From the NCBI GenBank assembly GCA_904378095.1, contig CAJFHE010000007.1, positions 5,457 to 69,456 of the forward strand: a stretch of 64,000 bases of DNA, given 5' to 3'. A program made the translations under genes and the position numbers. This DNA comes from an uncultured Clostridia bacterium (GTDB taxonomy: Bacteria; Bacillota; Clostridia; TANB77; CAG-508). The notes below the pieces were generated by a model that saw only the letters and a program-made list of their open reading frames with translations, was not told where the DNA came from and did not search any database. Shown here piece after piece: positions 239 to 49,029 of this stretch (its first letter is position 1; each line of letters opens with the position of its first letter).

Positions 239-252
239 GAGAAACTTCAAAT

Positions 253-285
253 ATCTTGATTTTGGAGACAGAGAAAAAAGATTTT
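253..285 (+). repeat. degenerate copy of the 39-nt palindromic element (F1)
   Basis: ATCTTGATTTTGGAGACAGAGAAAAAAGATTTT versus consensus ATCTTGTTTTTGGGGACGGAGGAAAAAAACAAGATTTT. Lies 15 nt after the nrdG stop. Confidence 0.45.
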
Positions 286-1220: not shown

Positions 1221-1425
1221 AAAAATTACCTCCTACTGTTTTATTGCTTTATAAATTTTTTATAATTCTCTGAACTTTTGTTTGTATTATTTTATACTTT
1301 AATTTTTATTTTGTCAATACTTTTTTCAAAAATTTGTTCGCTTTTTTGTAACAACAAAAATATTGACAGATTTTCGAATAAACAATATAATTTATGTATG
1401 GTTTATTCAGCTTGGAGGTGTTTGT

Positions 1426-2622
1426 TTGAAAAATTCTTTTAAATTAGTAAGTGCAAATGAAAACAATCCTAAATGGAGCAATGTCATTTCGAGGGAGACA
1501 CCTTTGTATTCTCGTAATAATGATATACGCTCTGAATTTGAAAGGGATTTTACCAGAGTGATACATAGTAATGCCTATAGGAGGTTAAAACATAAAACTC
1601 AAGTTTTTTATTCTCCCCAAAATGACCATATTTGTACTAGAATAGAGCATGTTAATCATGTAGAGTCTATAAGCTATACTATTGCTCACTATCTTGGCCT
1701 TAATGAAGAGCTTACAAAGGCTATTGCCGTATCACATGATTTAGGTCATAGTCCTTTTGGACATAAAGGTGAAAAAATATTAGATGAAATATGTAAGAAA
1801 GATTTAAATTTTTCATTTTGGCATGAGAAAAATGGTTTATATTTTGTAGATAATATTGAACTTTTGGAAGATGATGAAGGTTGTAAACGAAACTTGGATT
1901 TAACTTATGGAGTAAGAGATGGTATTATTTCACATTGTGGTGAAATAGATGAGAATATAATTAGGCCTAGAGATGAATTTATAAACTTAAAAGAATATAA
2001 TTATCCAAATCAGTTTGCTCCATATACTTGGGAAGGTTGTGTCGTAAAAATTTCTGATAAGATTTCTTACATTGGAAGAGATATTGAAGATGCTGTGAGT
2101 TTAGGAATTCTAGATGAGCATTTAGATAAATTATATGATTTGTTGGGATATACTAGTGGTACTATTAATAATACTGTAATTATTAACACATTAATTTATG
2201 ATTTATGTACAAATTCTTCTCCTGAAATTGGACTATGTTTCTCTTCTGAAGCATTAAATTTAATGAATAAAATTAAGAAATTCAATTATGAATACATTTA
2301 TCTTTCTGACGCTTTAAAACCTTCTGATGAGTATTTTTCTATAGTGATTAATAGAATTTACTGTACTTTGAAAAATGCATATAATGGAGATACTACTTTT
2401 CAGAATTTAGATAAATTAAGAAAGTTTTATCCTAATTTAATAAATGGTTTTGTAGATTGGTTTAGTAATTTTTCTACTACTGGTGATAGACAAAATTTAA
2501 AGAATAAGGTTTTGTTTGACATACAAAATTCTAAAGATTATTACTTTGCTATTATTTTATATATTGCAGGAATGACAGATAAATTTGCGATTGATACGTA
2601 TAATGAGATAATTGGATTTTAA
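1426..2622 (+). CDS. dGTPase-like HD-domain deoxynucleoside triphosphate triphosphohydrolase
   Basis: RDFTRVIHSNAYRRLKHKTQVF and SHDLGHSPFGHKGE motifs. TTG at 1426 lies 7 nt after GGAGG (1414-1418). The track ORF starts at 1363 without an RBS. Confidence 0.8.
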   Translation: MKNSFKLVSANENNPKWSNVISRETPLYSRNNDIRSEFERDFTRVIHSNAYRRLKHKTQVFYSPQNDHICTRIEHVNHVESISYTIAHYLGLNEELTKAIAVSHDLGHSPFGHKGEKILDEICKKDLNFSFWHEKNGLYFVDNIELLEDDEGCKRNLDLTYGVRDGIISHCGEIDENIIRPRDEFINLKEYNYPNQFAPYTWEGCVVKISDKISYIGRDIEDAVSLGILDEHLDKLYDLLGYTSGTINNTVIINTLIYDLCTNSSPEIGLCFSSEALNLMNKIKKFNYEYIYLSDALKPSDEYFSIVINRIYCTLKNAYNGDTTFQNLDKLRKFYPNLINGFVDWFSNFSTTGDRQNLKNKVLFDIQNSKDYYFAIILYIAGMTDKFAIDTYNEIIGF

Positions 2623-2630
2623 CTAACTTT

Positions 2631-2687
2631 GGGGACGGAGGAAAAAAGTTGTTTTTTTCCTCCGTCCCCAAAAACAAGATTTTCGAC
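2631..2687. repeat. composite F1 element: two inverted GGGGACGGAGGAAAAAA cores plus one flank, between convergent genes
   Basis: GGGGACGGAGGAAAAAA (2631-2647) pairs perfectly with TTTTTTCCTCCGTCCCC (2653-2669), followed by AAAAACAAGATTTT. Acts as a likely bidirectional terminator. Confidence 0.7.
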
Positions 2688-2690: not shown

Positions 2691-3938
2691 CTAAAAATGA
2701 TTTAAGACCAACTCTTCATACTTTTGTGTAGCTACCTCAGGGTTATGTGGACCATTAAAATCTTTAATTGGAGCAAATTCTTTCTCTGTGTTTACTCTAA
2801 GTAAAGCGATATTATCAAAATACGAGAAAGCACTAAATACAAATTGCTCAAATTTATATATATTTGGCTTGTCTGGAACTTGTTTCATTCCTTCTTCATT
2901 AACAAAAGCATTTTTTCTAAAGGCTCTATGGTACGATAATTTTACATTGGACATTTTTTTGATTGCATTTAAACTAAATAAATGTGCTAACATGTTAGTT
3001 TCTCTATATAAATAATTTCCTTTATTATCAGTAATTTTAGATAGCTCCTCAGTAAAATTTTCACAATCCACTATTGCAGGCTTTTTATCTCTTCTGGCAA
3101 AAATCCAAGAAGGATCTGAAGGGTTAGATTTAAATAAAGTTTTAGAGCCCACTTCATATTTAGAATCTATAGTATATCCTATAAATACAGGGTCAAGCGG
3201 ATTTAACAGTACATTATCAACACCGCCAACAAATAACCATTGTAGTTTCTTTTGCTCCATACTTTTAATTAAATTTGTTCTTTTTAAAGAAGAAAATAAA
3301 TTTCCATTACCATTAGATGCTAGATTTATTTTATAAATTTCTGAAAGAACAAGCTTACCATTCACATCAATAATCGGCAAATTTTCCTGATTAAAAAATG
3401 TAATATTATTTCTATCATAATCAAAATAATTATTCTGCTCAAAAAAATTGATTGTATCAAAATAATTACTAGTACTAGTCATAATGTACCAAGGAATATA
3501 TATTTTATATTTAGAATAGGCTGTTTTTAAATAATCACATACAATTTCAAAAAGAGATTTCCTAGGATTTGTATCTAAAACATAAGTACCCTTAGGAGCA
3601 TTAAAACCTAACCTAGAGCCTTGACCACCGGCTACAGTTATTACACCTACTTTACCAGATTTGATAGCCTTAGCTCCTAAATTATAATACTGCTTAAGCT
3701 TCGAATCAGATAATGATTCTTTATCTACGTATTTTAAAGGCTCAATTTCTTCAGTAGACTTGAATACTTCAGTTTTTGATTTTTCATATAAAGATAAAAT
3801 CTCTTCGAAATCAATATTCAATATTTGGTTTAACAAATCAGACTTTTGTGATTCTGTAAGCTCATTATAAAACTGTAATAAATGCTCTTGATTATATTTT
3901 TTTAGAATATCTCTTACTTTACTCAGTTTATTCTCCAT
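2691..3938 (-). CDS. UDP-sugar pyrophosphorylase (UDPGP/UAP family nucleotidyltransferase)
   Basis: VITVAGGQGSRLGFNAPKGTY glycine-rich loop. The second ATG (3938) is preceded by GGAGGG. Confidence 0.7.
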   Translation of the reverse strand: MENKLSKVRDILKKYNQEHLLQFYNELTESQKSDLLNQILNIDFEEILSLYEKSKTEVFKSTEEIEPLKYVDKESLSDSKLKQYYNLGAKAIKSGKVGVITVAGGQGSRLGFNAPKGTYVLDTNPRKSLFEIVCDYLKTAYSKYKIYIPWYIMTSTSNYFDTINFFEQNNYFDYDRNNITFFNQENLPIIDVNGKLVLSEIYKINLASNGNGNLFSSLKRTNLIKSMEQKKLQWLFVGGVDNVLLNPLDPVFIGYTIDSKYEVGSKTLFKSNPSDPSWIFARRDKKPAIVDCENFTEELSKITDNKGNYLYRETNMLAHLFSLNAIKKMSNVKLSYHRAFRKNAFVNEEGMKQVPDKPNIYKFEQFVFSAFSYFDNIALLRVNTEKEFAPIKDFNGPHNPEVATQKYEELVLNHF

Positions 3939-3968
3939 AAAACCCTCCATTCGAGTAATAGAATACTC

Positions 3969-6242: not shown

Positions 6243-6427
6243 TAAATACATAAAGTAAAGAATTATTCTTTAAGAATAGTTCTTTATTTTTTCGTGCACA
6301 AAGCATTTTTTAAAATTTTTATTTGAGAGCTAGTATAATTAAAAATCAAAAAGTGTTGTATAATTTACACCAAATATTATATAATAATTTAGTAAAATGT
6401 AGATGATTGCGAAAGGAGAAAAAAGTT

Positions 6428-7702
6428 ATGAGTTATAATAAACAAGAAATAAAAAAAGGAGTTACAATTCATAATATTACTACAAATAAATTTAAAACAA
6501 ATTTATATGCTGTATTTTTAGCTCTTCCACTAGAAAGAGAAAATGTAACTAAAAATGCCTTAATAACAGCAATTTTAAGAAGAGGAACGCAAAACATACA
6601 ATCCCAAAACTTAATTAGTCAAAAATTAGAAGAAATGTATGGTGCAAGTTTTGATTGCGGAATAGAAAAAACAGGCGATAATCACGTAATGAAATTTTAT
6701 TTAGAGGCTATAAATGAGGAGTTCATTCCAGAAAAAGAAGAATTAACTAAAAAATGCATAGATATTTTATTTGATATCATATTCAACCCACTAGTAGAAA
6801 ACAATGGATTTAAGCGAGAGTATGTAGAATCTGAAAAAAATAATTTAAAACAGATAATAGAATCAAAAATAGACAATAAAAGAGTATATGCTTTTGAAAG
6901 ATGTATAGAAGAAATGTTTAAAGATGAGCCATATGGTTTATATAAATATGGTTATGTAGAAGATTTGGAAAAAATTACTCCTCAAAATTTATATGAGTAT
7001 TACAAAAAACTAATTAGTGAATGTAAGATAGACATATTTGTATCTGGAACTATTGATAATAAAAAAGTAAATGAGCTAATAGAAAACAACGAAGAAATAA
7101 GAGAATTAAAAGAAAGAGAAGCAAGATATGTTGTAAATACTGAAAAAACAAAACAAAGAGAGCAAAAAGAGACAAATACAGTAGAAGAGCATATGCAAGT
7201 AGGACAAGGAAACCTAGTTATGGGGTTAGATGTAAATTGCAAAAACGAAAATTGCAAATATATAGCATCTGTGTATAATGCAATATTGGGCGGTGGAGCA
7301 AATTCAAAACTATTCCAAAATGTTAGAGAAAAAGAAAGTTTAGCATATACTGCAGGCTCAACATTTAGAAGGCAAAAAAATGTAATTTTCATTAGATGTG
7401 GCATAGAAATAGCAAACTTTGATAAAGCTCTAGAAACAATAAAAATGCAACTAACAGACATACAAGAAGGCAGATTTTCAGATGAAGATTTAAATAACTC
7501 AAAAGAATTAATTATAGAGTCAATAAGAGGCATAAATTCTGAGCAGGATACAGAAATAACATATTATTATGGACAAGAATTATCAGATAGCTTCACAACA
7601 CTAGATGAATATATAGAAAAGATAAGCAATGTGTCAGTAGAAGACGTAAAAGAGTTGGCAGGAAGCATTGCTGTAGATACAGTCTATTTCCTAAGAGATT
7701 AA
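6428..7702 (+). CDS. M16 (pitrilysin) family protein, non-catalytic partner (no HxxEH)
   Basis: M16-like length and fold pattern with no HxxEH motif. Paired with the active M16 gene downstream (YmfF/YmfH-like arrangement). ATG 6428 follows GGAG. Confidence 0.7.
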   Translation: MSYNKQEIKKGVTIHNITTNKFKTNLYAVFLALPLERENVTKNALITAILRRGTQNIQSQNLISQKLEEMYGASFDCGIEKTGDNHVMKFYLEAINEEFIPEKEELTKKCIDILFDIIFNPLVENNGFKREYVESEKNNLKQIIESKIDNKRVYAFERCIEEMFKDEPYGLYKYGYVEDLEKITPQNLYEYYKKLISECKIDIFVSGTIDNKKVNELIENNEEIRELKEREARYVVNTEKTKQREQKETNTVEEHMQVGQGNLVMGLDVNCKNENCKYIASVYNAILGGGANSKLFQNVREKESLAYTAGSTFRRQKNVIFIRCGIEIANFDKALETIKMQLTDIQEGRFSDEDLNNSKELIIESIRGINSEQDTEITYYYGQELSDSFTTLDEYIEKISNVSVEDVKELAGSIAVDTVYFLRD

Positions 7703-7741
7703 AAATCTTGTTTTTTTCCTCCGTCCCCAAAAACAAGATTT
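7703..7741 (-). repeat. F1 palindromic element, exact consensus (reverse orientation)
   Basis: AAATCTTGTTTTTTTCCTCCGTCCCCAAAAACAAGATTT starts 1 nt after the M16 stop codon. Confidence 0.9.
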
Positions 7742-10057: not shown

Positions 10058-10074
10058 AAGGAGTAAATATAGTA

Positions 10075-14582: not shown

Positions 14583-14591
14583 GGGGAAGAA

Positions 14592-23785: not shown

Positions 23786-25204
23786 ATGAGAAATAAACTA
23801 AGTAAGAGAAAAATATATCAGGTTAATAAGTTGATTAATTTAAAAGAAGCGCTATATAAATGTTTAATATCTATAATTGTGCTTATAGCTATTTTAATTG
23901 CTTCCAGTGAAACACTGGTGACAGATTTTAATCTGTCACCTAGTTTTGCTAATGCTCAAGAAAATCTTGTTTTTGGGGACGGAGGAAAAAAACAAGATTT
24001 TATGGTACAAATAAATGAAGAAGATGAAGAAATAGACATTGAAGAGATACAAAAAGAAGTAATAGAAACAAGCTCAAATCCAGAAGAAGCTGATGTGGAC
24101 TCAAGGATAGCATTAATTTATGATAGAGCATCTGGGAAAATTTTATATGAAAAGAATGGAAACAAGCAAACTCCTATGGCAAGCACTACTAAAATAATGA
24201 CTGCTATAGTAGTTTTAGAAAATGCTAATTTAAAAGATGTAGTTACAATAGATTCAAAGGCGGCTGGAATTGGAGGCTCTAGATTAGGACTAAAAAAGAA
24301 TGATAAAATAACAGTAAACGATTTATTATATGGGCTAATGCTCCGCTCTGGAAATGATGCTGCAGTGGCATTAGCAAATTATGTTGGTGGAAGTGTAGAA
24401 AGTTTTGCACAGATGATGAATGAAAAAGCGAAAGAAATGGGACTTACAAATTCTCATTTTATAGTACCACATGGATTGGATAACGATGGGCATTATACAA
24501 CAGCGTATGAGCTTGCAAAAATGGCAGACTATGCATTAAAGATAGATAAATTTAAACAGATAGTAGGCACACAAAACACTACTATATATATTAATGGATA
24601 TGCAAAAGCAATAAATAATACAAATAAATTATTAGGAAGTGTGTCAGGGGTATATGGAGTAAAAACAGGATTTACAAATGGTGCGGGAAGATGTCTGGTA
24701 ACAGCATGTAAGAGAGATGATTTAGACATCGTAACAGTAATTATTGGAGCTGATACAACAAAGCAGAGAACAGCAGATACTATTAAACTAATAAACTATG
24801 CTTATAACAACTTTGAAGTGATAAATATTAAAGAAATTGTAGAAGAAAAATTTGAGCAATGGAAAGCAATAAACCAAAGTAGAATATATGTGAATAAAGG
24901 TATAAAAAATAACGTAGAGTTGCTTTTAGAAGATATGCCTTTTGAAAACATGGCAATTAAAAAGAATAATAAGGATAAAATAGATGTAGAAGTTAATTCG
25001 ATTTTTTATTTAGAAGCATCAGTAGCTAAAAATCAAGTAATTGCAAACATGAAAATAACTATAAATGGAGAGACACTTGAAATATTAGAAGTGTATTCAA
25101 AAGAAGAAATTAGAAAAAAAGAAATGCAAGATTATTTTATAGAGTTTTTGGAAGTGATAAATCTTGTTTTTGGGGACGGAGGAAAAAAACAAGATTTATT
25201 CTAA
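23786..25204 (+). CDS. D-alanyl-D-alanine carboxypeptidase (PBP5/DacF-type) carrying translated repeat elements
   Basis: SxxK (ASTTK), SxN (RSGND), KTG (KTGFT) motifs and an N-terminal TM anchor. Contains F2 and F1 copies in-frame near the N-terminus. A further F1 copy supplies the last 14 codons. Confidence 0.85.
   Translation: MRNKLSKRKIYQVNKLINLKEALYKCLISIIVLIAILIASSETLVTDFNLSPSFANAQENLVFGDGGKKQDFMVQINEEDEEIDIEEIQKEVIETSSNPEEADVDSRIALIYDRASGKILYEKNGNKQTPMASTTKIMTAIVVLENANLKDVVTIDSKAAGIGGSRLGLKKNDKITVNDLLYGLMLRSGNDAAVALANYVGGSVESFAQMMNEKAKEMGLTNSHFIVPHGLDNDGHYTTAYELAKMADYALKIDKFKQIVGTQNTTIYINGYAKAINNTNKLLGSVSGVYGVKTGFTNGAGRCLVTACKRDDLDIVTVIIGADTTKQRTADTIKLINYAYNNFEVINIKEIVEEKFEQWKAINQSRIYVNKGIKNNVELLLEDMPFENMAIKKNNKDKIDVEVNSIFYLEASVAKNQVIANMKITINGETLEILEVYSKEEIRKKEMQDYFIEFLEVINLVFGDGGKKQDLF
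23906..23948 (+). repeat. F2 element translated in-frame (SETLVTDFNLSPSF)
   Basis: AGTGAAACACTGGTGACAGATTTTAATCTGTCACCTAGTTTTG inside the PBP ORF. Confidence 0.75.
23962..24000 (+). repeat. F1 element, exact consensus, translated in-frame (NLVFGDGGKKQDF)
   Basis: AAATCTTGTTTTTGGGGACGGAGGAAAAAAACAAGATTT inside the PBP ORF. Confidence 0.9.
25159..25197 (+). repeat. F1 element, exact consensus, forming the C-terminus of the PBP ORF (NLVFGDGGKKQDLF*)
   Basis: Identical 39-mer. The stop codon (25202-25204) lies just beyond the element. Confidence 0.9.
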
Positions 25205-25420: not shown

Positions 25421-25591
25421 CAAATTCATTTAGACGAAGTTGTTTTTGGAGAAAAGAAAAAACAGCTTTCATTTTTTAATTATAGGATTTATTGATTTTT
25501 GACAATTAAATTTATTATACAATTAGAATTTTTATCTTTGTAATAAATATGTTAGGTAATGCATATTATATAATATATTTAATTATTTCAA

Positions 25592-33166: not shown

Positions 33167-36100
33167 ATGAAGAAAAGAGTTGTAAAAGCGTTACTATTAT
33201 TAGTATTGGTAGTAATAATTATTATTGCTATTGTGAATACATACAAATGGATTGTTTGTGGAAATCAGTATATACAAATAAGTACTGCTGGTAAAGCATA
33301 TGCAAATAGCAATTTGTATGTTTCTGTTAATGCACAAGAAAATCGAGTAGACTTAGAAACAAAAACAAAATTAAAGCTTTTGGATTCAGATGGAAAAAGG
33401 GTAAAAAATGCTGAAGTTTCATATGATGGAAGTAATGCTGTAATAAGTATTCCAGACGTCGAAGCAGGAAATTATTTTATAGAAGCAAAAGTTTCTAGCG
33501 AAGCGGGCGTAGATACAGTTGAAAAGGAAATATATATTGCTGATGCTAACCAAGAGAATATTACAATAACATTTGATAAAGGAATATATAAATCTGGAGA
33601 TGAAGTGAATTTTAGAGCATTAATTACCAACAAAAACGATGACACACCTGTACAAAGAGAAGCCAATATTTGCATTTATGATGGAAATGATAATAAAGTA
33701 TATGATGAAACAGTAAATGCTTCCGAATATGGAATTACGAGCGGAACTTTTACATTGGCAGATGAGGTAAATAGTGGAATTTACAAGTTGGTTGTAAAAA
33801 CTAACATGGCAGAAACAACAAAACAGTTTAAGGTAAATCCATATGTAACTCCAAAATATGAGGTACAAATAGATTTTGACAAAGACAGCTATTTAGTTGG
33901 TGATACAGCCAAAATCAACCTTAATGCTGAATATTTTTTTGGTGAGCCTGTTTCAAATGCAAATTATACAGTGTATGTAAATAATACGAAGATTCAAGAT
34001 ATTGTAGCAGATGCAGATGGTAGAGCTAGTGTGGATTATAAGGTAGAAACAGCAGGAAAATATTCTGTAAAAGTAGAGGCAACAGATTCATCTAACTTTT
34101 TTGTTGAAGAAACAGGTAATTTCGCAGCAGGTACAGATATTTTTGAAGTAGAGCTACAGCCAGAGTACAACAACCTTATCTCAGGTAGACAAAATAATGT
34201 GTATGTATTTACTTCTGATGCTGAAGGAAACCCGGTAAAAACATATGTAACTATTTTCTCAAATGATTTTACAAAACAAATTGCAACTGATGAAAATGGT
34301 ATAGGAATGTTTACAATAGATATTGAAGCCACACAAAATAGTGGTAGGACTAATTATCAAGATTCTAAAATATTTACAATAGTTGCACAAAACATGGAAG
34401 GTGAGACTGTTCAAAAAAGTGCACGTTTATCAATTGAAACAAGTGATTTGCTAATTTCTACAAACAAAGTTAAATATAACCAAGGAGAAGATATTAATAT
34501 AAATCTTTCTTCTGTAGTTGAGAATACAAAAAATATCTATTTTTTTAAGAATGACAAATTAATTAAAATGCTTACTACAGATTCTTCTGATTCTACAGTT
34601 AATTTTGGAGATATATATGGCTTAATTGATATATATGTATCTGCAGATTCATCAGCAACAAGATATGATGAAGATAATTTATATAAAAGAACAATATTTA
34701 TTAAACCAGAAAAGAAATTAAATATATCTATTAATACTGACAAGCAAGAATATGCACCAGGTGATAATATATCAATCTCTTTTGCAACTACAGACGAAAA
34801 TAATAACAGTGTAGATAGTGCATTACTTGTAAGCATGCTAGATAATTCTGTATTGAATTTGGCAGATAATGATCTTTCTATTGATAATATAAAACTGGCT
34901 TTATCTGATATAGTATTTTCAGATGAGTTTGATGCAGCCACATTATACTCATGCATTATAGATGATGCATCAGAGCAAACATTAACGGGACTATTACTAA
35001 AGCAAAGTGACAGAGATGCAAACATATCAGAAACAGGCATATATAATGTTGAAGAAGAAGGAAACGCTGCTAAAATTGCGATAATTCTTTGGATTAGTAT
35101 AGCAATTATCATCATTATAGTTTTATGCGTTAAATTACCTAAATTTAGAGAGGCAATGCTACACTTTTTAAATTGTACAATATATGTAATAGTAGTTACA
35201 ATATTGGTGATGTCAGTGTTAGATGAGATAGCATGGAGTCTGCTGTATGATTTTGCAGCAGGAATTATGATTGCTGTACTCATAGTTACTGCAATAACAT
35301 ATGTGATTTGGGTTTCGAAATTAGACAAAAAGATTACTAGAACTTCAGTTTCATTATTAATAACGTCAATTATTTTTATGTTAGCAATATTCCTAATCGA
35401 AGAGTTTGATATAAATATTGTAATATTATTACTAATACTTGTGTTAATAGTCCTAATTCTAGTAATATTATCAAAAGTAAGTGAAACTAAAAATTTAAAA
35501 ATAAATAAATACATGAGAAAAATCGGAAAAGAAGTTATATATATTTGCAAATTTATAAGTGCATTAGCAATTTCACTGTTTGTAGGAATTATTATAGAGC
35601 GTATAATTGACATTTATTTAACAGGAATACCTATAGCAATAGTAGGAACATATTTCTTAAATTACTTATTTAACAAATTAGGAAAAGAAGAACAAACAGA
35701 TGACAGCCAACAATTTATGAATAAAAGAACTTACAGCTTTTATATATTGTGCGTATTAGCATGTATTGGAGCAGTTACAATCTGTTATTTTGTAATAAGC
35801 GAGTTAAGCAATAGCACTATGAGTAGTGTAGATATGTCGGGACCTTCAAGTTATGAAGGAGATATAGCTGACGGATTCTTTGGTACGACGGATACACAAT
35901 CAATTACAGGCTCTGGAGGCATATCTTCTATACTTGAAGGGGCACAAGATTTCTTATCAGGTAGAGATGAAAATACTATAACAGAAAGTACAGAAGAAGA
36001 AACAAGCACACCAACTGTAGAAACTGTTGTTGATGACAATATAAGAAATGTATTCTTAGAGAGTATGTGCTTTGTACCAGAATTGGTAACAAGTAATGGA

Positions 36101-38101
36101 AATGCTCAATTAGACTTAGAGCTTAGCGACAATATAACAACATGGACAATTCAAACTGTAGGTAATACAAAAGATGGAAGAGTTGGCTATGGAATGATAG
36201 ATAATGTGCGAGTATTTAAAGAATTCTTTGTTGACTTCGAGCTTCCAACCAATTTAGTAGATGGCGACAAAGTAAGCATTCCAGTAACAGTATATAATTA
36301 TACAGACGAAGAAATTACTACAACTCTAAAGATAAACGAAGAAGATTGGTTTGAGTTAGAAGAAAATGATATTAATGTGACAGTCCAAGCATCAGGAGCA
36401 GAAATGGTGTATGTTCCAATTACCATAGCAGAAGTTGGAAATCACAAATTTAGAGTAGAAGTATCAAGTAATTCATTAACAGACATTGTAGAAAAAGAAT
36501 TGACCATATCTCCAAATGGATATAAAGTAGAAAAAGTAGTATCTACAGGAAGACTAGGAAATGATGTTTCAGAAGACATTTTGTTACTAGAAGATATGGT
36601 AGAGAACACAGGTACTGTGCATATCAAAATATATGCAAGCACAGTAGCACAAACAATAGAAGGAATGGACCAAATATTTAGAATGCCAACAGGTTGCTTT
36701 GAGCAGGTTTCATCAAGTCTATATCCAAATATATTGGCATTAAAATATTTACAAGATAATGGTATAGTAAATGAAGAAATAAAGGCTAAAGCTATTGAAT
36801 ATATATCATCAGGATACCAAAAACTTCTAACTTATGAAGTAAAAGGAGAAAGTGGTGGATATTCGCTATACGGACGCTCTCCAGCTGAAACAGTATTAAC
36901 ATCATATGGATTAATGCAACTTACAGATTTAAAAGACGTATATAATGTAGATGATGCAGTGATTAATAAAATGACTAACTTCTTATATGGTAAACAAAAC
37001 TCAAATGGATCATTTACAATAACAGGTTACAATGTGGCAGGATTGGGAACAAGAGAAAATTTAGCATTAAATGCATATATAACATGGGCGCTATCTGAAA
37101 GCAATCCAAGCCATGAAAAATTAGCTAAATCTATTGAATATTTAAAAGAAGAGATAGATGATGTTGATGACAACTATACGTTGGCATTAATTGCAAATGC
37201 ATTGGCAAATGTGGGAGACAAAGAAGCAGAAAATGTTGTAAAAAGATTAGTAAATAATGTGACAATAGACGGAAACAATGCTTATATCACATCTAATGTA
37301 AGAGATTACTATGGCTCGAGAGGAGATAATCAAACAATTCAGACAACTGCATTAACTTCAATAGCATTATCGAAGACGTCAATAAATGACAATGTCAATA
37401 AGATGCTTGTAAATTATTTAATAAGCAAAAAAGATGCTAGAGGAACATGGAATTCAACACAAGCTACAGCTCTTTCGCTTAAAGCAATAAACGAAATGAA
37501 TGAAAAAAATAGATTAGAAAACCAAACAATTACTGTAAGAGTAAATTCAGAAGAGCAAAAAATTGAAATAAAAGACAATGCACTAGATATTTATGAGCTC
37601 ACATTTACAGGATTAGGCAAAGAAAACAAATTAAATATTGATATTGAAAAAGGCAGTGCATATTATGAAGTCATAACAGAATATTATGTACCTTATGACA
37701 AAGTAGATACATCGGAAGACAAAATAGAGGTAAGTGTTGAGGCTAACGAAAGTGTAAAAGTAAATGAAGTATTGCAGGCAAAAATTAGACTTATAAATAG
37801 AAGCGATGAATCAATTTATAATGGAATGGTAACAATAAATATTCCTCAAGGCTTTACAGTACAAGAAGAAAGCCTAATGAGATTAGAAAGCAGAGGCATA
37901 ATAGAAAAATATGAGATTTCATATACATCAGTTAATTTATATTTAAGTGATTTTGAAAAATCTAGAATATTTAACTTAGATATTGATTTTAGAGCAGCTT
38001 ATCCAGTTGATATTACTGGCTTAGCAGTTAGAGCATATGACTATTACAATCCAGAAATAGAAGGGAAAGCAAAGCCAATTCACATCGTAGTAAGTGAATA
38101 A
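33167..38101 (+). CDS. alpha-2-macroglobulin family thioester protein with internal eight-helix membrane block
   Basis: N-terminal anchor and MG-like repeats. Eight predicted TMs at aa about 637-877 (35075-35797). Then NVFLES..FVPEL...DNITTWTIQ (FPExW/DSITTW-like) and thioester PTGCFEQ (36692-36706). Confidence 0.75.
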   Translation: MKKRVVKALLLLVLVVIIIIAIVNTYKWIVCGNQYIQISTAGKAYANSNLYVSVNAQENRVDLETKTKLKLLDSDGKRVKNAEVSYDGSNAVISIPDVEAGNYFIEAKVSSEAGVDTVEKEIYIADANQENITITFDKGIYKSGDEVNFRALITNKNDDTPVQREANICIYDGNDNKVYDETVNASEYGITSGTFTLADEVNSGIYKLVVKTNMAETTKQFKVNPYVTPKYEVQIDFDKDSYLVGDTAKINLNAEYFFGEPVSNANYTVYVNNTKIQDIVADADGRASVDYKVETAGKYSVKVEATDSSNFFVEETGNFAAGTDIFEVELQPEYNNLISGRQNNVYVFTSDAEGNPVKTYVTIFSNDFTKQIATDENGIGMFTIDIEATQNSGRTNYQDSKIFTIVAQNMEGETVQKSARLSIETSDLLISTNKVKYNQGEDININLSSVVENTKNIYFFKNDKLIKMLTTDSSDSTVNFGDIYGLIDIYVSADSSATRYDEDNLYKRTIFIKPEKKLNISINTDKQEYAPGDNISISFATTDENNNSVDSALLVSMLDNSVLNLADNDLSIDNIKLALSDIVFSDEFDAATLYSCIIDDASEQTLTGLLLKQSDRDANISETGIYNVEEEGNAAKIAIILWISIAIIIIIVLCVKLPKFREAMLHFLNCTIYVIVVTILVMSVLDEIAWSLLYDFAAGIMIAVLIVTAITYVIWVSKLDKKITRTSVSLLITSIIFMLAIFLIEEFDINIVILLLILVLIVLILVILSKVSETKNLKINKYMRKIGKEVIYICKFISALAISLFVGIIIERIIDIYLTGIPIAIVGTYFLNYLFNKLGKEEQTDDSQQFMNKRTYSFYILCVLACIGAVTICYFVISELSNSTMSSVDMSGPSSYEGDIADGFFGTTDTQSITGSGGISSILEGAQDFLSGRDENTITESTEEETSTPTVETVVDDNIRNVFLESMCFVPELVTSNGNAQLDLELSDNITTWTIQTVGNTKDGRVGYGMIDNVRVFKEFFVDFELPTNLVDGDKVSIPVTVYNYTDEEITTTLKINEEDWFELEENDINVTVQASGAEMVYVPITIAEVGNHKFRVEVSSNSLTDIVEKELTISPNGYKVEKVVSTGRLGNDVSEDILLLEDMVENTGTVHIKIYASTVAQTIEGMDQIFRMPTGCFEQVSSSLYPNILALKYLQDNGIVNEEIKAKAIEYISSGYQKLLTYEVKGESGGYSLYGRSPAETVLTSYGLMQLTDLKDVYNVDDAVINKMTNFLYGKQNSNGSFTITGYNVAGLGTRENLALNAYITWALSESNPSHEKLAKSIEYLKEEIDDVDDNYTLALIANALANVGDKEAENVVKRLVNNVTIDGNNAYITSNVRDYYGSRGDNQTIQTTALTSIALSKTSINDNVNKMLVNYLISKKDARGTWNSTQATALSLKAINEMNEKNRLENQTITVRVNSEEQKIEIKDNALDIYELTFTGLGKENKLNIDIEKGSAYYEVITEYYVPYDKVDTSEDKIEVSVEANESVKVNEVLQAKIRLINRSDESIYNGMVTINIPQGFTVQEESLMRLESRGIIEKYEISYTSVNLYLSDFEKSRIFNLDIDFRAAYPVDITGLAVRAYDYYNPEIEGKAKPIHIVVSE

Positions 38102-38107: not shown

Positions 38108-38146
38108 ACATCTTGTTTTTGGGGACGGAGGAAAAAAACAAGATTT
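38108..38146 (+). repeat. F1 element
   Basis: ACATCTTGTTTTTGGGGACGGAGGAAAAAAACAAGATTT, 7 nt after the A2M stop. Confidence 0.9.
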
Positions 38147-40574: not shown

Positions 40575-43500
40575 TTGAAAAGCTATAAAATTTTAAATAC
40601 AAAGGGTGCCGTATTAGATAAATATCAATTAGAGCAATATTTAGAAAAACTAGCATCAGACCATATATTAAAAGAAAAATCAGATAAAAATACGTATCCT
40701 ATTCCTAGAATGCAAGAAAATTTTGCAGCAATTACAGAGGTATATAACTTATTAAATGAGCATATTAAGCTAAAAATACCTATACATCCAGCAGGTGAGT
40801 GGCTTTTAGACAATTATTATATTATTGAAGAAACTGTAAAAAACATAGAAAAAGAATTGACATTAAAGAAGTACAAAAACTTTTTAGGAATAGCCAATGG
40901 AACAAATTATGGATTTGCCAGAATTTACGTGCTTGCTACAGAAATTGTCTCTTACACGGATGGTAATATAGAGGGCAAGCTTTTAACTGATTTACTTAGA
41001 GCGTATCAAGAGAAAAAGAAGCTTAGCATGGAGGAAATATGGAATATAGGTGTATTTCTTCAAATTGCATTAATAGAAAATATTAGGCAAATCTGTGAGA
41101 GTATCTATTCTGTCCAGATTCAAAAATATAAAGTTGAGAATATCATAGAAAGACTAATAGAAAACAAGTCGAAAGAGGAGCTACAGTTTAACAAACTAAA
41201 CGAATACAAAACTAAAGTAAAAGAATATGGCGAAATGAAATATCCATTCATAGAATATATGTCATATAAATTAAGGCAGTTTGGGAAAAAAGCATATCCG
41301 TTTTTAAATATTTTGGAAGAGCAAGTAAACAAAATGGGTATAGAGATTTCAGAAGTTATTAAAAAAGAGCATTTTGATATTGCAGTAAAAAAAGTATCCA
41401 TGGGAAATTCTATTACAAGTATAAAAAACATACAAAGAATTAACTTTATAGATATTTTTGAAGAGATAAATCAAGTTGACGACATATTAAAGCAAGACCC
41501 AGCAAATGTTTATGAGCAGATGGATTATAAAACTAAGATATACTACAGAAATAAGATACAAGAAATTTCTAAAAAAACAAAGATTTCAGAAATTTATATT
41601 GCAAGAAAATGCCTAGAGTTAGCTGAAGGAAAGCAAGGCAAAAAAGCCCACATTGGATATTACTTAATAGATAGTGGTAATAAAGAGTTAATGGAAAGTT
41701 TGCAAAATAAAAAGATAAACACATGGACCAATAATAAAAAGATAGGAATATATATTGTGGTAAAAGTGCTAACTAGTCTTGCAATATCTATTGGATTAGG
41801 TGGATATGTATTTGCACAAACTCAAAGTATTTGGCTTTGGATATTCACAGCAATATTGTTGTATATACCAATAGAAATTATTTTTATCCAAATAGTACAA
41901 CATATATTAAGCAAAATTATAAAGCCAAAATTAATACCAAAAATGGATTTGCAAAATGGCGTGCCAGCAGAAGATGCCACATTTGTAGTTATACCAACCA
42001 TTATAAGCAAAGAAGAAAAGCTAAAAGAAATGATGAAAAAGCTAGAAGTGTATTATATTGCCAATAAAAGTGATAATATATATTTTGCACTTTTAGCAGA
42101 TGTGACAAGTAGCGATAAAAAAGAGGAAGAATGGGACGAAAAAATAGCTTCCCTGGGAATAGAGCTTGCTAAAAAATTAAATCAAAAATATCCAGATGAG
42201 AATTTCCCTAAATTCCACTTTTTATATAGGAAAAGAGAGTGGAATGATAAAGAAGAGTGTTATCTAGGCTGGGAGCGTAAAAGAGGATTATTAACACAAT
42301 TTAATGAGTACATTTTGCAGAATAATAGAAATTTACAACATGATTTCTACGTAAACACCATAGACTTAGAAAAATTGCCCAAAATCAAGTATGTAATAAC
42401 ATTAGATGCAGACACAGAGCTTGTGCTAAATACAGGGTTAGAGCTAATTGGAGCGATGTCACACATTTTAAATAAACCAGAAGTGGAAAATGGAGTTGTA
42501 AAAAGCGGACATGGCATTATACAGCCACGTGTAGGGATTACCTTAGAAGCCAGCCGGTAGAAGCAAATTTACAAAAATATATTCTGGCTCTGCCGGTACA
42601 GATTCGTACACAAATGCAATATCTGATGTGTACCAAGATAATTTTGAAGAAGGCATTTATACAGGAAAAGGAATATACGATTTACAAGTTTTTGCTAATG
42701 TCCTAGAGAAACAAATACCAGAAAATACGGTCCTTAGTCACGATTTGCTAGAAGGCTCGTACTTAAGATGTGGACTATCATCAGATATTATGCTTATGGA
42801 TGGATACCCAACTTCGTATGCAGCTTTTAAAACAAGACTTAGCAGATGGACAAGAGGGGATTGGCAAATAATAAGATGGCTTAAGGGAAAAATAAAAGAT
42901 AAAGACGGAAAAGAAAATAAAAATCCTTTAGGGTTACTATCTAAATACAAAATCTTAAACAACCTAGTAAAAAGTGTGTTTGAGCCGGTTGCAGTTATGG
43001 CTATATTATTCTTAATAGGATTAGACATTATAGCAAGTATAAAAATTTGGCCATTAATGTCAGTGATTATCGTATCTGCAATAATTCCTTCAATTCTAGA
43101 AATAATAAATAGAATAATATACAAAAAAGAAGGAGAAAGTGGTCAAAGAACTTTCTATAAATCTATATCTGGTGTTAAAGCAAGCATTATTAGAGCTCTT
43201 TTAGAGATAGGTACATTACCAGACAAAGCCTATACAATGGTAAAAGCAATAGCTAAAACATTATACAGATTGCTAATTAGTAAAAAGCATTTATTAGAAT
43301 GGACTACTGCAGAAGAAGCGGAGAAAAACTCAAAAACAGATATAGTTTCTTATTATAAAAATATGTGGCCAAATCTAGTATTAGGAGTCATTTTGTTGCT
43401 ACTTTCGTATGCAAATCCATGGGTTATAATTTTATCACTAGGGTGGATTATTACTCCTAGCGTAATGAAGCTCATTAGTAAAAAAGAAAAATATACGCCT

Positions 43501-46500
43501 GCAATAGAGTATTTAAGCCAGAAAGACAAGGAGTACATGCTAGAAATAGGAAGAAGAACATGGAGCTATTTTAAGGAGAACTTAACAGAAAAATCCAACT
43601 TCTTACCACCAGATAATTATCAAGAAGACAGAAAAGAGCAGCTTATATATAGAACTTCTCCTACAAATATAGGGTTAGCACTTTTAGCAGTAGTTTCTAG
43701 TTATGATTTGGGTTACGAAAATCTAGAAGATACAATTTCGCTATTATCTAAAATGATAGAAATTATAGCAAAACTTCAAAAATGGAATGGACACCTATAC
43801 AACTGGTATGATTTAACAACATTGGAGCCATTATCTCCAAAGTATGTATCAACTGTGGATAGCGGAAACTTTATAGGGTATTTATACACACTAAAGCAAT
43901 TTTTACAAGACATTTTAAAAGAAATTGGAGAAGGCAAAATAAATCAACTAATTGCTAATAGAAGAAAAGAAGCAGAGTTTATACAAACTAAAAAAAATAA
44001 AGAAGGAGCAAATGAAAATGGCGAGAATAACAACTTTACAAATGTGCAAAGTGTGGAAAGTGATAAAGAAAAAGAAGAACAAACTGCAAGTGAAGACAAA
44101 AAATATAATATAAATGATGAAGAAATAAAAAAATATGAAACAAACAAAAAAGATAAACAAGATTTAACCGAAACAATCAATTACATGATAAACATAATTG
44201 ACAACACGATAGATGGCACAGACTTCAGATACCTCTACAGCGAAGAAAATAGAATTTTCTCAATTGGCTTTAATGTAGAAGACAACTCTTTAACTCCTTC
44301 ATATTATGATTTGCTAGCATCAGAAGCAAGACAGGCAAGCTTAATAGCAATTGCTAAAAAAGACGTGCCAGCAAAGCATTGGTATAACTTAAGCAGAACA
44401 CTTACTGTGCTTAACAAATACAAAGGCCTTATTTCGTGGTCAGGTACAGCGTTTGAATATTTAATGCCAAATGTAAATATACCAAAATATCCAGGCAGCA
44501 TTATAAGTGAATCTAGCCTATTTGCAATTATGTCACAACAAGAATATGCCAAAAAGCTAAATATTCCATGGGGAATTTCTGAAGCGGCTTTTAATTTGCG
44601 AGATTTGAATAATAATTATCAGTATAAGGCATTTGGAATTCCTTGGCTAGGCCTAAAAAGAGGATTAGCAGACGAGATGGTTGTGTCATCTTATGGAGCA
44701 ATGCTTGCAATAAATGATTTTCCAGAAGAGACTATAAAAAACTTAAAAGAATTAGAAAAAGAGGGAATGTATGACAAATATGGATTTTACGAATCAATTG
44801 ATTATACACCAAGTAGACTAAAAAAGAGAGAAACAAGTGCAATTGTAAAAACATATATGGCACATCATCAAGGGTTAATTCTGCTTTCCATCGACAATTT
44901 GTTTAACACAAATATTTTACAAAAACGATTTATGGAAAATCCAGAAATGCAATCAGTAGAAATATTACTAGAAGAAAAAATGCCAGACAATGTAATTATC
45001 ACCAAAGAGCAAAAAGAAAAAGTAGAGAAAGTTAAAAATATAGATTACGAAACATATGCAGTAAGAGAGTATAACAAGCCATTTGATAAACTAAAACATA
45101 TAAATATTATATCAAATGAGGACTACTCTGTAATAATAGACCAAAAAGGAGACGGCTATAGCAAATACAAGGACATTGTTATTAATAGATTTAAGAAAAC
45201 AGATGAGCTACAAGAGGGTATTCATTTCTTCTTTAAAAACATTAAGACAAAAAGAATATGGTCATCTGCTCAAATGAATTATCTTGCAGCAGCAGATAAA
45301 TATGCAGCATATTTTTCGCCAGATAGCAGTAAATTTGTAAGGCTTGATGGAGGAATAGAAACAACTACAAAAATTAGTGTTATGCCAAATAGTCCAGTAG
45401 AGATTAGAAGAGTAGAGTTAAAAAACTTAGGAAATTCAGAGGAAACCATAGAGGTAAACTCGTATATAGAGCCAATTCTCTCTTCACTAGAGCAAGACTA
45501 TTCGCATAAAGCATTTAACAATTTGTTTTTGACTTTTGAATTTTTGGAAGATACAAACACAATTCTAGTAAAGAGAAAGTCAAGGGATAACAATACAAAG
45601 GACATGTACATGGCTGTAAATTTATATACAGAGGACGATACAATTGGAGAATTAGAGTATGAATTAGATAAAGAAAAATTTGTGGGAAGACAAAATGTAG
45701 AGCTCCCTGTAGCAGTTCAAAATTCTGCTCCATTAACCAGAAGAGTCCAAAGAACCACCGAGCCAATTATAGCTATGAGGAGGACAATTAAAATACTGCC
45801 TAGCGAAAAAGTGGTGTTAAACCTTATCATTTCAGTGTCAAAGCAAAGAGAAGAAGCAATAAATAATGTTAGAGAAAACATGAATAACGAAAAAATTATA
45901 AGGAATATGAATTTGGCTAAAGCAAAGGTCGAAGCGGAATCGCTATATGTTGGAGTAAAGGCAGTAGACATAGAAAAATACCAAAACATGGCGAAATATC
46001 TAATTTATCAAAATCCGTTAAAGCTATTAATGTATAAAGGTAAAATTCCAGAAGAGGCACCAGTAGCAGAATTATGGAAGTATGGAATATCTGGAGATTT
46101 GCCAATTCTCCTTGTAAAAATAAAAGATGTTAGTGATATCTATGTGGTCAAAGACTGTATTAAAGCATATGAATATTTTAGAGTTAAAAATATAAAAATA
46201 GATTTAGTAATTTTAAATGAAGAGAAAAAAACGTATGAGAACTATGTTTACGAAGAAATAATGAATGCGATTTTAGATAGTAATTTGGCATATATGCAAA
46301 ACCAAAAAGGTGGAATATTTGTTTTAAGCAATCTAGAAAAAAATGCCAAGAGAATACTAGAATATAGAGCCAACTTGTTGATTAATGCTCAACTTGGAAA
46401 TGTGTCTAGACAGATAAAAGACTATGAGGAGGAATATCTAGACAGCATAAAAGAAATGGGAGAAGAAGTAGAAGCAATACCAATTTTAGAGGAAGAAGTG

Positions 46501-49029
46501 CAAAGAAAAGCATTAGAGGCAGATAAACTTAAATATTACAACGAATATGGGGGTTTCTCGAGCGATGGTACAGAATATCTAATACGTGTAAATAAAGATG
46601 AAAGATTGCCAACAGTATGGTCAAATATAATGGCAAATGATAATTTCGGTACAGTAGTAACAGAAGGTTTAGGCGGATATACTTGGTATAAAAATAGCAG
46701 ATTAAATAGAATAACAGCATGGAATAACAATCAAGTAACAGACGTACCTTCAGAAGTTATTTATTTAGAAGATATGGACAGCAAAAAAGTGTGGTCTGTT
46801 TCTGTAAGTCCTATGCCAGATAATAATGATTATTATATCACCTATGGCTTTGGATACAGCAAATATGGACACACAAGCAATGGGGTATTCCAGAATTTAA
46901 AAATATTTATACCACAAAATGAAAACTGCAAAGTGCAAATTTTACATTTAGAGAATAAAATGGCAAAAAAGAAAAATCTAAAAATAGTATATTATATTAA
47001 GCCAGTGTTGGATGAAGACGAAATTAAATCAAATGGATATATAGAATTAAAATGTAACAGTAGCACAAATGTAATCACACTGCAAAATCAGAGCAAAGAA
47101 ATTAAAGACAGAATGATTACCTATATCACTTGTAGTGAAAAAATAGCTTCATATACAGGTAGTAAAATGGCATTTATAGGAAGAGGAACAATAAAAAATC
47201 CAGAAGGAATTAAAAAATTAGAATTAGATAGAGCAAATACTTTAGGCAAAGATGAAGTACTTGCAGTAGAGTTTAAAATTAGTTTAGAAGCATTTGAAAA
47301 TAAAGATATAGTAATTACATTAGGAGCAGACGAAAACGCGTTAAACCTTCAAGACGTGGCATATAAATACGCAAATGTAAATAATGCAGTTAGTGAATAT
47401 GAAAACACAAAACGATATTGGAGAGAGCTACTTAGCAACATAAAAGTAGAAACACCAGTGGAATCCATGAATATAATGCTAAATGGCTGGCTCTTGTATC
47501 AAACACTTTGCTCTAGAATGCTAGCACGAAGCGGATATTATCAATCCGGTGGTGCATATGGCTTTAGAGACCAACTTCAAGATTGTATAGCATTAAAATA
47601 TATTTCACCAGAATTCTTAAAAAGGCAGATAATAAGGCATAGTAAACATCAATTTATAGAAGGAGATGTAGAGCATTGGTGGCATGAAGAAACCGGCAGA
47701 GGAATTCGTACCAGATTTTCGGATGACTTGCTTTGGCTCCCATACATGGTAGCAGAATATATTAACTTTACTGGAGACCATAGCATTTTAGATGAAGAAA
47801 CCAGCTATGTAAAAGGTGCCCCACTAGCAGAAGGCGAAGATGAAAGATACGACTTGTTTTTGGGGACGGAGGGAAAAAACAAGATTTACGTACATTGCAT
47901 AAAGGCAATTGAAAAATCACTAAATTTTGGCGAGAACGGCTTACCTAAAATAGGCTCTGGAGACTGGAATGACGGATTCAGCACAGTTGGAAATAAAGGA
48001 AAGGGAGAAAGTGTATGGCTAGGATTTTTCCAATACAAGGTGTTATCAGAATTTAGCAAAATTTGTGAGTATTATGGGGAGAAATTAGGAAGAGAAAAAC
48101 AAGCAGTAAATAATGATAATCTTAATAGTTCTAGTGAAATAAACCATGAGACAGAAACAAAAAGAGCTGAGAGATACAGAAAAATAATGGAAAATCTAAG
48201 GAAAGCACTAAATACAAATGCTTGGGATGGCAGATGGTATAAAAGAGCCTTCATGGATGATGGAAATGAATTAGGAAGCATACAAAATGAAGAATGCAGA
48301 ATTGACAGCATTGCACAAAGTTGGGCAACTATTTCTGGTGCAGGAGATAATGATAAAAAATATATTTCTATGGAATCTTTGGAAAAACATCTGATTGACA
48401 GAGAAGCAGGCATTATAAAATTGCTTGACCCACCATTTGAAAAAAGCAAGTTAGAGCCAGGATATATTAAGGCATATATACCAGGAACAAGAGAAAATGG
48501 AGGGCAGTACACCCACGGGGCAATTTGGGCAATTATTGCAGAAGCAATGCTTGGGTTTGGAGATAAGGCAACAGAATATTTTAGAATGATAAATCCAATT
48601 GAGCATTCAAGGACCAAGGAAGAAGCTAAAAAATATAAAGTAGAGCCATATGTAATAGCTGCAGATATTTATGGAGGAGAATTAGCAGGACGCGGAGGCT
48701 GGACATGGTACACAGGCTCTAGCAGTTGGATGTACGAAGCGGGAATACATTACATCTTAGGACTAAAAGTTGAAGGTAATGTATTAAAAATAGAGCCATG
48801 TATTCCAGTAAATTGGAATGAATATAGCATTAGATATAAATTTGGAAATAGCATATACAATATAAAAGTGGTTAATAAAAGTGGCAAAGTGAAAGAAGTA
48901 GATAGAGTTTTAATAGACGGAAAAGATACAAGCAAAGAAGAAATATATATAGGCAATCGAAAGCTAGAAAAGAATGAAATTTTGCTAAATAACAATGGGG
49001 GAATCTACTCGGTAGAGGCTCAAATTTGA
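40575..49029 (+). pseudogene. cyclic beta-1,2-glucan synthase-like giant protein (GT84-like transferase + TM region + GH94 phosphorylase) split by a 1-nt frameshift near 42547-42557
   Basis: ORF1 40575-42560 (LDADTE). ORF2's frame is open from 42547 and continues (K)PAGRSKFTKIYSGSAGTDSYTNAISDVYQDNFEEGIYTGKGIYD, SHDLLEG, RLSRWTRGDWQ, then GH94 motifs YGFRDQLQD, SGDWNDG, ENGGQYTHGAIW. Confidence 0.75.
47851..47887 (+). repeat. F1 element variant translated in-frame inside the GH94 domain (DLFLGTEGKNKIY)
   Basis: GACTTGTTTTTGGGGACGGAGGGAAAAAACAAGATTT, read in a different frame from the PBP copies. Confidence 0.8.

Follow-up and report, generated by a model that had tools for sequence, protein, structure and literature searches.

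We analysed a 64-kb stretch of DNA (the window) from an uncultured Clostridia bacterium, positions 5,457 to 69,456 of contig CAJFHE010000007.1 in assembly GCA_904378095.1. The window has a G+C content of 30.7% and carries, after and within genes for peptidases, a D-Ala-D-Ala carboxypeptidase, an alpha-2-macroglobulin and a cyclic beta-1,2-glucan synthase-like protein, copies of a 39-nt palindrome that we call F1. The unit reads AAATCTTGTTTTT-GGGGACGGAGGAA-AAAAACAAGATTT (full 39-mer AAATCTTGTTTTTGGGGACGGAGGAAAAAAACAAGATTT). The window was searched for the 39-mer with up to two mismatches, using 100 dinucleotide-preserving shuffles as control, and then with an nhmmer profile built from the copies. 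Five matches to the 39-mer were found, and none in the 100 shuffles. In total the window holds eight full copies, of which one is truncated at the window end, together with a half copy and two that have decayed (Table 1). A preliminary description of this DNA had proposed a dispersed palindromic family; this was borne out by the eight full copies, against none in the shuffles, and by 55 exact-core matches in the metagenome assembly UMIY01. The copies it listed are real, except that the one placed at 2646-2684 was 2 nt off (true position 2644-2682) and the one placed at 253-285 (here 249-285) is weak. Three copies that lie inside open reading frames (ORFs) had gone unnoticed.

Table 1. F1 copies in the 64-kb window and their surroundings
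Copy	Positions	Strand	Match and context
Decayed copy, tentative (AAATATCTTGATTTTGGAGACAGAGAAAAAAGATTTT)	249..285	+	nhmmer 11 bits, E = 0.12; just past the stop of an NrdG-like ORF, at the left breakpoint of a 2.4-kb inversion
Half copy (T-run, core, A-run)	2628..2647	+	nhmmer E = 5e-4; adjoins the stop of the HD-domain gene 1363..2622
Full copy, 2 mismatches, right arm CAAC variant	2644..2682	-	9 nt from the stop of the UDPGP gene (2691..3950), sense to UDPGP
Perfect copy	7703..7741	-	Directly follows the TAA that ends M16 peptidase gene 6407..7702, antisense to that gene; 35 nt before the next M16 gene
Perfect copy, translated	23962..24000	+	Carboxypeptidase ORF 23786..25204, aa 59-71
Perfect copy, translated	25159..25197	+	C-terminal tail of carboxypeptidase ORF 23786..25204
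Decayed copy (GAAGTTGTTTTTGGAGAAAAGAAAAAACAGCTTTC)	25436..25470	+	Downstream of the tRNA gene 25345-25417
Copy with 1 mismatch	38108..38146	+	6 nt past the stop of the alpha-2-macroglobulin gene 33167..38101, sense
Translated copy	47851..47889	+	Cyclic beta-1,2-glucan synthase-like ORF 42628..49029, within the GH94 catalytic domain
38-nt copy, A-run one base shorter	59171..59208	+	Intergenic, between 58181..59059 and the ParA-like gene 59285..60154
Copy cut by window end	63973..64000	-	30 nt past the stop of 63586..63942, antisense to that ORF

The wider distribution of F1 was followed with the 20-mer CTTGTTTTTGGGGACGGAGG as query. Fifty-three F1 loci were found in JGI metagenome contigs, 46 of them in a single human-gut assembly, UMIY01, which carries 55 exact-core matches and whose contigs are 98-99.5% identical to the window where the two overlap. 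UMIY01 recovers five of the seven exact F1 sites of the window; this recovery, taken with the 55 matches, suggests roughly 60-100 copies per genome. The 'hundreds per genome' expected earlier thus become tens. Among 185,579 species, each represented by one genome, only four true matches were detected, all single-copy, together with two chance coding matches. Sister lineages at ~91-93% protein identity have a few copies, and the syntenic DNA of L068, L072 and L073, relatives whose amino-acid identity is at most 85%, yielded none. Pattern scans and BLAST gave no real match in viral contigs, plasmids or phages. An Rfam search, one of the checks that had been suggested, found two tRNAs and nothing at F1 at gathering thresholds, and a literature search for the core 11-mer returned eukaryotic primer matches only. 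The family is lineage-specific: its host is a low-GC, spore-forming Clostridia species from the human gut, as yet uncultured, and a few close relatives share it. Related loci carry SpoVAD and Spo0E-like genes, which, with the M16 peptidases and the S11 carboxypeptidase of the window, point to such an organism. The same 31-nt core is present in contigs L002 and L006 of metagenome-assembled genomes (MAGs). Since these contigs share nothing else with the compared DNA, F1 may occur in more distant organisms. Some short, low-coverage contigs with F1 are binned in other taxa, including L003 (an 'uncultured Bacilli' MAG) and L006 (a Ca. Avacholeplasma MAG); L003 looks mis-binned, since a UMIY01 contig from the species of the window matches it at 96% identity.

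The anatomy of the element was compared over 54 distinct complete sites, the wider set comprising 69 distinct flank contexts. Hardly any variation is seen in the inner 31 nt (CTTGTTTTT-GGGGACGGAGGAA-AAAAACAAG). This core consists of 9-bp arms, CTTGTTTTT and AAAAACAAG, around the loop GGGGACGGAGGAA, with at most four less conserved pairing bases added on each side. The right outer bases, [A/T]TTT, are retained in 49-50 of the 54 sites and the left outer bases, AAA[T/A], in only 33-47, so the left end is the more ragged one. Two subtypes predominate, AAATC...GATTT and AAAAC...GTTTT. The element had been described as stop-free, and TAA, TAG and TGA are indeed missing from all six frames; its length is exactly 13 codons. 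This status is rare, being shared by 0.65% of the 39-mers of the window, 1.7% of palindrome-preserving shuffles and 0.02% of plain shuffles.

The plus strand of F1 is predicted to fold into a 13-bp, A/T-rich stem with a 13-nt loop (-10.4 kcal/mol, z = -3.6), and the minus strand folds at -9.0 kcal/mol (z = -6.0). Only two G-C pairs are present in the stem. The loop is asymmetric and includes a perfect Shine-Dalgarno core (GGAGG); GACG is found only within it, and not at the hairpin ends. Covariation in the stem was not significant (168-220 of 500 shuffles reached the observed measures, for 37 distinct sequences), and the inner nine base pairs never vary among these sequences. The two subtypes were considered as compensatory changes and rejected as such, the pairing of their outer bases reflecting two subfamilies and not independent events. 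The palindrome is real, but there is no independent support for a hairpin under selection. Its interpretation as a terminator-type element had to be abandoned: with two G-C pairs, a 13-nt loop and only AUUU(U) in place of a proper U-tract after the stem, F1 does not qualify as an intrinsic (Rho-independent) terminator, and a terminator scan of 20001-40000, the stretch holding three copies, did not flag it. At about five sites two units stand head to head, and their cores pair into a G+C-rich hairpin of 17-18 bp. Such doubles are located in L015, L046 and L060 and at window 2628-2682, where the fold reaches -34 to -36 kcal/mol. The half copy of the window double is orthologous to a decayed single copy at L070:1981-2013.

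Outside the element little is conserved. No common flank or target tetranucleotide was seen beyond the ends of the 54 sites, an extended-palindrome test on the flanks was negative, and the window contains no lone F1 arms. Target-site duplications, which had been proposed as a check, were not found with any definition of the boundary: direct repeats of 2-5 nt showed no excess over permuted flanks at any boundary offset.

About 85% of F1 sites are extragenic and about 15% are translated. Divergent intergenic placement is seen in only 2 of the 47 sites for which both neighbours are known. In 16 of the 54 complete sites a sense-strand ORF of at least 90 aa stops 3-8 nt before CTTG, which means that the stop codon overlaps or touches the ragged left end, in variable register; in a further eight the ORF continues across all of F1 and ends shortly beyond. 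It had been stated that most copies lie 1-15 nt from a stop codon. Within the window this is so only for the copies at 7703 (0 nt), 38108 (6 nt) and 2644 (9 nt), and it is for the family that a concentration at gene 3' ends holds. The G-rich strand of F1 runs with, and not against, the gene whose stop it abuts at a ratio of 25:6, and with the majority gene strand of its contig at 28:15. By these ratios a replication-strand cause of the orientation bias is a weaker candidate than a cause tied to the adjacent gene. Roughly 20-35% of copies are antisense, and some stand in 5' untranslated regions (UTRs) or within ORFs. The GGAGG loop was also considered as the ribosome-binding site of the downstream gene and was rejected, the start codons lying 37-200 nt away. 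F1 copies persist where little harm is done, that is, after stops, between convergent or tandem genes, and in coding DNA.

Nine F1 sites are translated within real ORFs, two in an S11 peptidase and the others in GH94, AddA, RecD2, SpoVAD, NUDIX, DUF4364 and non-ribosomal peptide synthetase (NRPS)-like proteins. All nine have the G-rich strand as sense. Six are read as NLVFGDGGKKQD, three as LFLGTEEKNKI and none as KSCFWGRRKKTRF, so that two of the three sense frames are in use. The copies lie outside Pfam domains in eight of the nine cases, the exception being GH94; the copy in AddA is a linker, and those in RecD2, SpoVAD, the NUDIX hydrolase, the DUF4364 protein and the NRPS-like reductase are C-terminal tails. 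The ORFs concerned are intact across strains. F1 is tolerated within coding DNA because 39 nt make 13 codons and no frame contains a stop. With nine in-frame sites in unrelated proteins, the analogy that had been drawn with Rickettsia palindromic elements (RPEs) holds as regards the consequence.

The carboxypeptidase of the window carries two of these copies. The one at 23962 is read as NLVFGDGGKKQD between the signal/anchor helix and the S11 domain, and the one at 25159 gives the end of the protein (...EVINLVFGDGGKKQDLF*). The protein with both copies was found unchanged on more than 20 contigs, and orthologues at 78-93% identity lack one or both segments: the linker copy is not in P0018 and P0021 (L074 and L075), and is present, 39/39 identical, in L066. 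In the AlphaFold model both segments are low-confidence coil, with a predicted local distance difference test score (pLDDT) of 24-26 at the 23962 segment. The GH94 copy, read as (D)LFLGTEGKNKI(Y) within the catalytic domain, is modelled as a confident beta-hairpin (pLDDT 87-92) at the protein surface. Many strains of this species have additional short elements directly behind the N-terminal F1 (L059:1549-3017; P0015), which divide the carboxypeptidase ORF into one of 102 aa and one of 399 aa without signal peptide; the window strain has a shorter, in-frame version.

Two sites with an empty counterpart could be scored; the M16 intergenic, tRNA-adjacent and carboxypeptidase N-terminal linker sites were too rearranged. 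In the GH94 domain the F1-derived peptide DLFLGTEGKNKIY can be aligned with its counterpart DLYLPSEEKESIY in 60 orthologues, and with the Agrobacterium Cgs structure 8rf9, without any gap, and at the DNA level the 39 nt of F1 exactly replace 39 other nt of L068 and L069. At the carboxypeptidase C-terminus F1 is present in the window and L074, and the site is empty in L075 (...EVINVIYSY*) and L066 (...NVIMISISSKN*). Alignment of the window with L075 has no gap over the 39 nt, although what F1 replaced here extends over the former stop codon into the 3' UTR, in which selection does not act on length. The net length change is therefore zero at both alignable sites. The overwritten sequences share 22/39 (GH94) and 19/39 (carboxypeptidase) bases with F1, in register, values reached by only 0.017% and 0.4% of positions, respectively, in F1-free relatives. 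The preliminary description had proposed insertion into coding DNA without truncation. Coding DNA is indeed occupied in this way, given three translated window copies, some 15% of sites translated in the family and orthologues without F1, but at the two alignable sites the term 'insertion' does not fit.

Other sites show how F1 and its surroundings change between relatives. At the M16 site of four relatives the stop codon is in the same place and the intergenic DNA, 150-260 nt, is wholly different. An intact copy abuts the same tRNA gene in L066 (11780-11817) as the decayed copy of the window, and the L026 orthologue of the 59171 copy has the full A-run. Orthologous copies of the window and L066 are 39/39 identical despite flanks that are ~85% identical, and those in L074 (25159 site) and L071 differ at 4/39 positions. 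In two strain pairs a deletion starts exactly at the right end of F1 (the window against L059/L066 at 24000, and L046 against L003); the second is explicable by ATTT microhomology.

A REP-like dispersed palindrome (REP, repetitive extragenic palindromic sequence) that survives at gene 3' ends and in tolerant parts of proteins is the firm part of our interpretation. Judging from the two scorable sites and from indirect features, F1 has probably spread by templated overwriting of look-alike sites. The combined explanation, a lineage-specific REP-like repeat, selfish or neutral, which is tolerated at gene 3' ends and in linkers, tails and loops and multiplies by such overwriting, has in our estimate an even chance of being correct. 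New copies would arise when a stretch resembling F1 is overwritten, guided by microhomology, through ectopic conversion or template switching from an existing copy, and not through cut-or-copy-and-paste transposition. Overwriting is favoured because both scorable sites preserve length, target-site duplications are lacking, the ragged ends keep host bases, the core is homogeneous and doubles occur. It would account for the missing duplications; the ragged outer ends could be variable ends of conversion tracts at which stop codons and other host bases survive, re-conversion of decaying copies could keep the inner 31 nt so extremely homogeneous, and the head-to-head doubles may be snap-back products. 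The sense bias of the G-rich strand would be best explained by selection; an antisense F1 would put an anti-Shine-Dalgarno-like CCUCC loop in transcripts and would encode FFPPSP, FFLRPQ or FFSSVP. A bolder version, which we put forward only tentatively, is that F1 multiplies with no transposase at all by base-for-base overwriting of chance look-alike 39-mers, including codons in folded enzyme domains, through short-patch ectopic conversion or a template switch at the hairpin, that the same process keeps the copies identical and makes the doubles, and that F1 and two further hairpin families of this lineage, F2 and F3, could all be its products.

Several points weigh against overwriting. The two alignable empty sites on which it rests both lie in or next to coding DNA. 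We know of no molecular process by which 39 nt could be converted at an identity of only 50-56%. A single-copy mobilising enzyme, for example a REP-associated tyrosine transposase (RAYT), could lie outside the ~0.75 Mb of F1-bearing DNA examined. The clustering of left ends on stop codons is left unexplained by the model. Preferential overwriting of terminators with GGGGAC stems was considered and is unsupported: intact GGGGAC hairpins are not enriched beside F1 copies, occurring in 2 of 51 flanks against a background of 2.3%. The orthologous copies in L074 and L071, with 4/39 differences, diverge at an approximately neutral rate, which argues against continuous homogenisation across species. 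Finally, F1 may have a host function at the RNA level.

That F1 is instead a non-autonomous transposable hairpin, a REP or miniature inverted-repeat transposable element (MITE) of minimal size, is a possibility that we regard as doubtful. An HUH tyrosine transposase (of RAYT or IS200/IS605-like type), or some other enzyme specific for hairpins, with a single gene elsewhere in the genome, would mobilise it in trans as single-stranded DNA, and the loop would be the recognition or cleavage site. Such an origin would suit the absolute conservation of the asymmetric 13-nt loop, the combination of one intact and one ragged end, and the absence of target-site duplications, which is also seen with IS200/IS605 and REPs; the doubles resemble dimers of REPs and of bacterial interspersed mosaic elements (BIMEs). 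The near-identity of more than 60 copies fits a recent burst within one species, the core in the unrelated L002 and L006 suggests horizontal spread, and REPs at stop codons and in ORFs are documented (PMC3733652). The deletions flush with the right end resemble transposon-adjacent deletions, but the one in L046/L003 can be explained by microhomology. The enzyme itself was not encountered: phmmer and tblastn found no IS200/RAYT-like TnpA ORF and no Y1 transposase in the ~0.75 Mb, no ORF is multi-copy in the F1-bearing loci, and the genes between paired copies in L039 are ordinary. Both the GTAG/CGTC tag and a conserved flanking target tetranucleotide are missing, and peel-and-paste insertion does not predict the length-preserving replacement of a look-alike at both scorable sites.

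We consider it unlikely that F1 is a host-selected RNA element, whether a stem-loop of 3' UTRs and intercistronic regions that shields mRNA from 3' exonucleases or tunes operon stoichiometry, or a GGAGG loop that meets terminating ribosomes, its spread then being repeated recruitment. The strong 3'-end and sense bias, often flush with the stop codon, the closer tracking of the adjacent gene than of the contig's majority strand, a hairpin stabler than shuffles and the perfect Shine-Dalgarno core would all be expected of such an element. Work by Liang, Rudd and Deutscher in 2015 is said to have found that E. coli REPs at most 15 nt from a stop codon modulate translation. The stem of F1 is weak (-10 kcal/mol, two G-C pairs), unlike a terminator, and shows no significant covariation; a function at the RNA 3' end makes no sense for the antisense fraction or for the copies in 5' UTRs and ORFs. 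Unrelated sequence stands at orthologous positions in relatives, which manage without F1, and orthologous copies drift at an approximately neutral rate. Stem-loops at 3' ends do set transcript stability in Clostridium operons (PMC4423207, PMC8219983). Very improbable, in our judgement, is a DNA-level site for protein binding or recombination (a dimeric regulator, a nucleoid or segregation protein, a site-specific recombinase or a DNA-uptake receptor) with the arms as half-sites: the inverted 9-bp arms, fixed spacing and invariant centre would suit it, as would rearrangement breakpoints at copies (the deletions at window 24000 and in L046, and an inversion of 311-2647 bounded by the copies at 249-285 and 2644-2682), but the core of a tyrosine recombinase site does not usually have an asymmetric 13-nt spacer, copies can drift and be translated, their positions form no pattern (clustering near an origin, for example), a gene-orientation bias is unexpected for a duplex binding site, and the inversion is more readily attributed to another element, present in L070 as a 70-nt inverted pair.

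Among known repeats the REPs are the closest. They overlap or supply stop codons, form head-to-head or tail-to-tail dimers and occur in ORFs (PMC3733652). REPs are palindromes of 20-40 nt in tens to hundreds of copies, and F1 resembles them in unit size and high copy number; it is mostly extragenic, in the gaps between convergent or tandem genes, with stop-codon contact, occasional in-ORF copies, single units together with head-to-head dimers, no target-site duplication and species-specific abundance. It differs in its ends, AAA[T/A] and [A/T]TTT in place of a GTAG or CGTC tag, in its A/T-rich stem with the conserved information in a large 13-nt loop, in the lack of a RAYT within the DNA examined, and in having replaced look-alike sequence at the scorable sites. 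Its host is one of the low-GC Clostridia, and the same survey lists no REPs in Firmicutes. RPEs (Ogata et al., 2000, 2002; reviewed in PMC10969869) are Rickettsia-specific, ~100-150 bp long, and add length to proteins. Like them, F1 is a palindrome open in the frames used and translated in-frame, as added or altered stretches of peptide, in tolerant regions of unrelated housekeeping genes; unlike them, it is 39 nt long with six frames open, is unrelated in sequence and mostly extragenic, and can substitute existing codons. The small intragenic repeat Cod-2 of Corynebacterium diphtheriae, whose resemblance to RPEs was noted by its authors (PMC2267715), is a further precedent, from a different phylum and with a different sequence.

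Prokaryotic MITEs such as Correia, RUP, BOX, ERIC and SPRITE (PMC10969869) are 50-500 bp long, with target-site duplications and usually the ends of a parent insertion sequence (IS). F1 shares with them the nature of a non-coding repeat with inverted termini, intergenic dispersal and occasional in-frame fusion to ORFs, but it is shorter, makes no duplication and, at the two scorable sites, no net insertion, and has no parent IS in the ~0.75 Mb. Clostridial stem-loops of selective RNA processing and stabilisation (SRPS) stand, like F1, directly after genes and in sense orientation (PMC4423207, PMC8219983); they are gene-specific, G+C-rich and not dispersed as identical repeats, whereas F1 is weak and identical everywhere. 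F1 is thus an undescribed REP-like family of a known general kind.

Two other hairpin repeats occur in the same DNA, and GGGGAC(A/G)G is common to F1, F2 and F3. The F2 repeat (AGTGAAACACTGGTGAYAGWTTTWAAWCTGTCACC) is found at window 20987-21021 and 23906-23940 and at L070:11290-11400; the copy at 23906-23940 is translated (ETLVTDFNLSP) in the carboxypeptidase ORF, just upstream of F1. The motif GGGGAC(G/A)G had also been reported in the stems of hairpins at 9419-9459 and 30288-30311, and it is present there as described; these hairpins look related to F2 (GGGGAC(A/G)GAT...ATC(Y)GTCCCC). F3 is an element of ~70 nt (GAGGAACAAGGGGACGGTTCC...AAAGGGACAGACGTAAAAATCTGCTCCC), which occurs at window 33098-33150 and as an inverted pair at L070:1866-1945 and L070:4990-5060. 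In L070 the pair flanks an HD...YgjP segment that has the opposite orientation in the window, where the breakpoints map to 234-311 and 2647-2702. An F1-mediated inversion of 311-2647 was considered and rejected; the breakpoints match F1 copies, but the inverted pair of L070 is the likelier cause. The UDPGP ORF of L070 reads into F3.

The neighbourhood is rearranged in other places too. A 6.6-kb segment (window 33100-39722), which carries the 1644-aa alpha-2-macroglobulin gene, the F1 copy at 38108 and an AAA_14/DUF4143 ATPase gene, is missing from the sister lineage L066, where the flanking genes are adjacent. The region from the carboxypeptidase to a 1443-aa CLIPPER-repeat gene is a rearrangement hot spot: the block of two tRNA genes at window 25345-25663 is inverted in L066 and replaced by an MvaI_BcnI and methylase restriction-modification pair in L074, and a phage-type integrase follows the region in L010. 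Tandem 441-aa paralogues without Pfam match lie at window 21060-23728, and in some strains (L007, L009) the second is replaced by a PDDEXK_2 (Rpn-like nuclease) gene and a 484-aa variant. A cluster resembling a type IV secretion system (T4SS), at window 9650-20976, comprises TrbC/T4SS-pilin, PrgI and TraC-like genes, a VirB4-like DUF87 ATPase and a lysozyme/M23 hydrolase. It stands beside the M16 peptidase genes in every relative examined (L070-L073) and therefore looks like a conserved chromosomal feature, not a recent conjugative element.

F1 extends protein-coding palindromes, best known from Rickettsia, to a free-living gut Firmicute, in the form of 13 codons with six open frames. It is a natural case of a repeat that rewrites linkers, C-terminal tails and even a beta-hairpin of a GH94 catalytic domain. 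Repeats of this kind break metagenome assemblies and mislead gene callers through split or extended ORFs, and they can cause mis-binning. If the length-preserving replacement of look-alike sequence were general, repeats would have a way to multiply other than transposition, and overwriting would then bear on the unsettled origin and homogeneity of REP-like elements.

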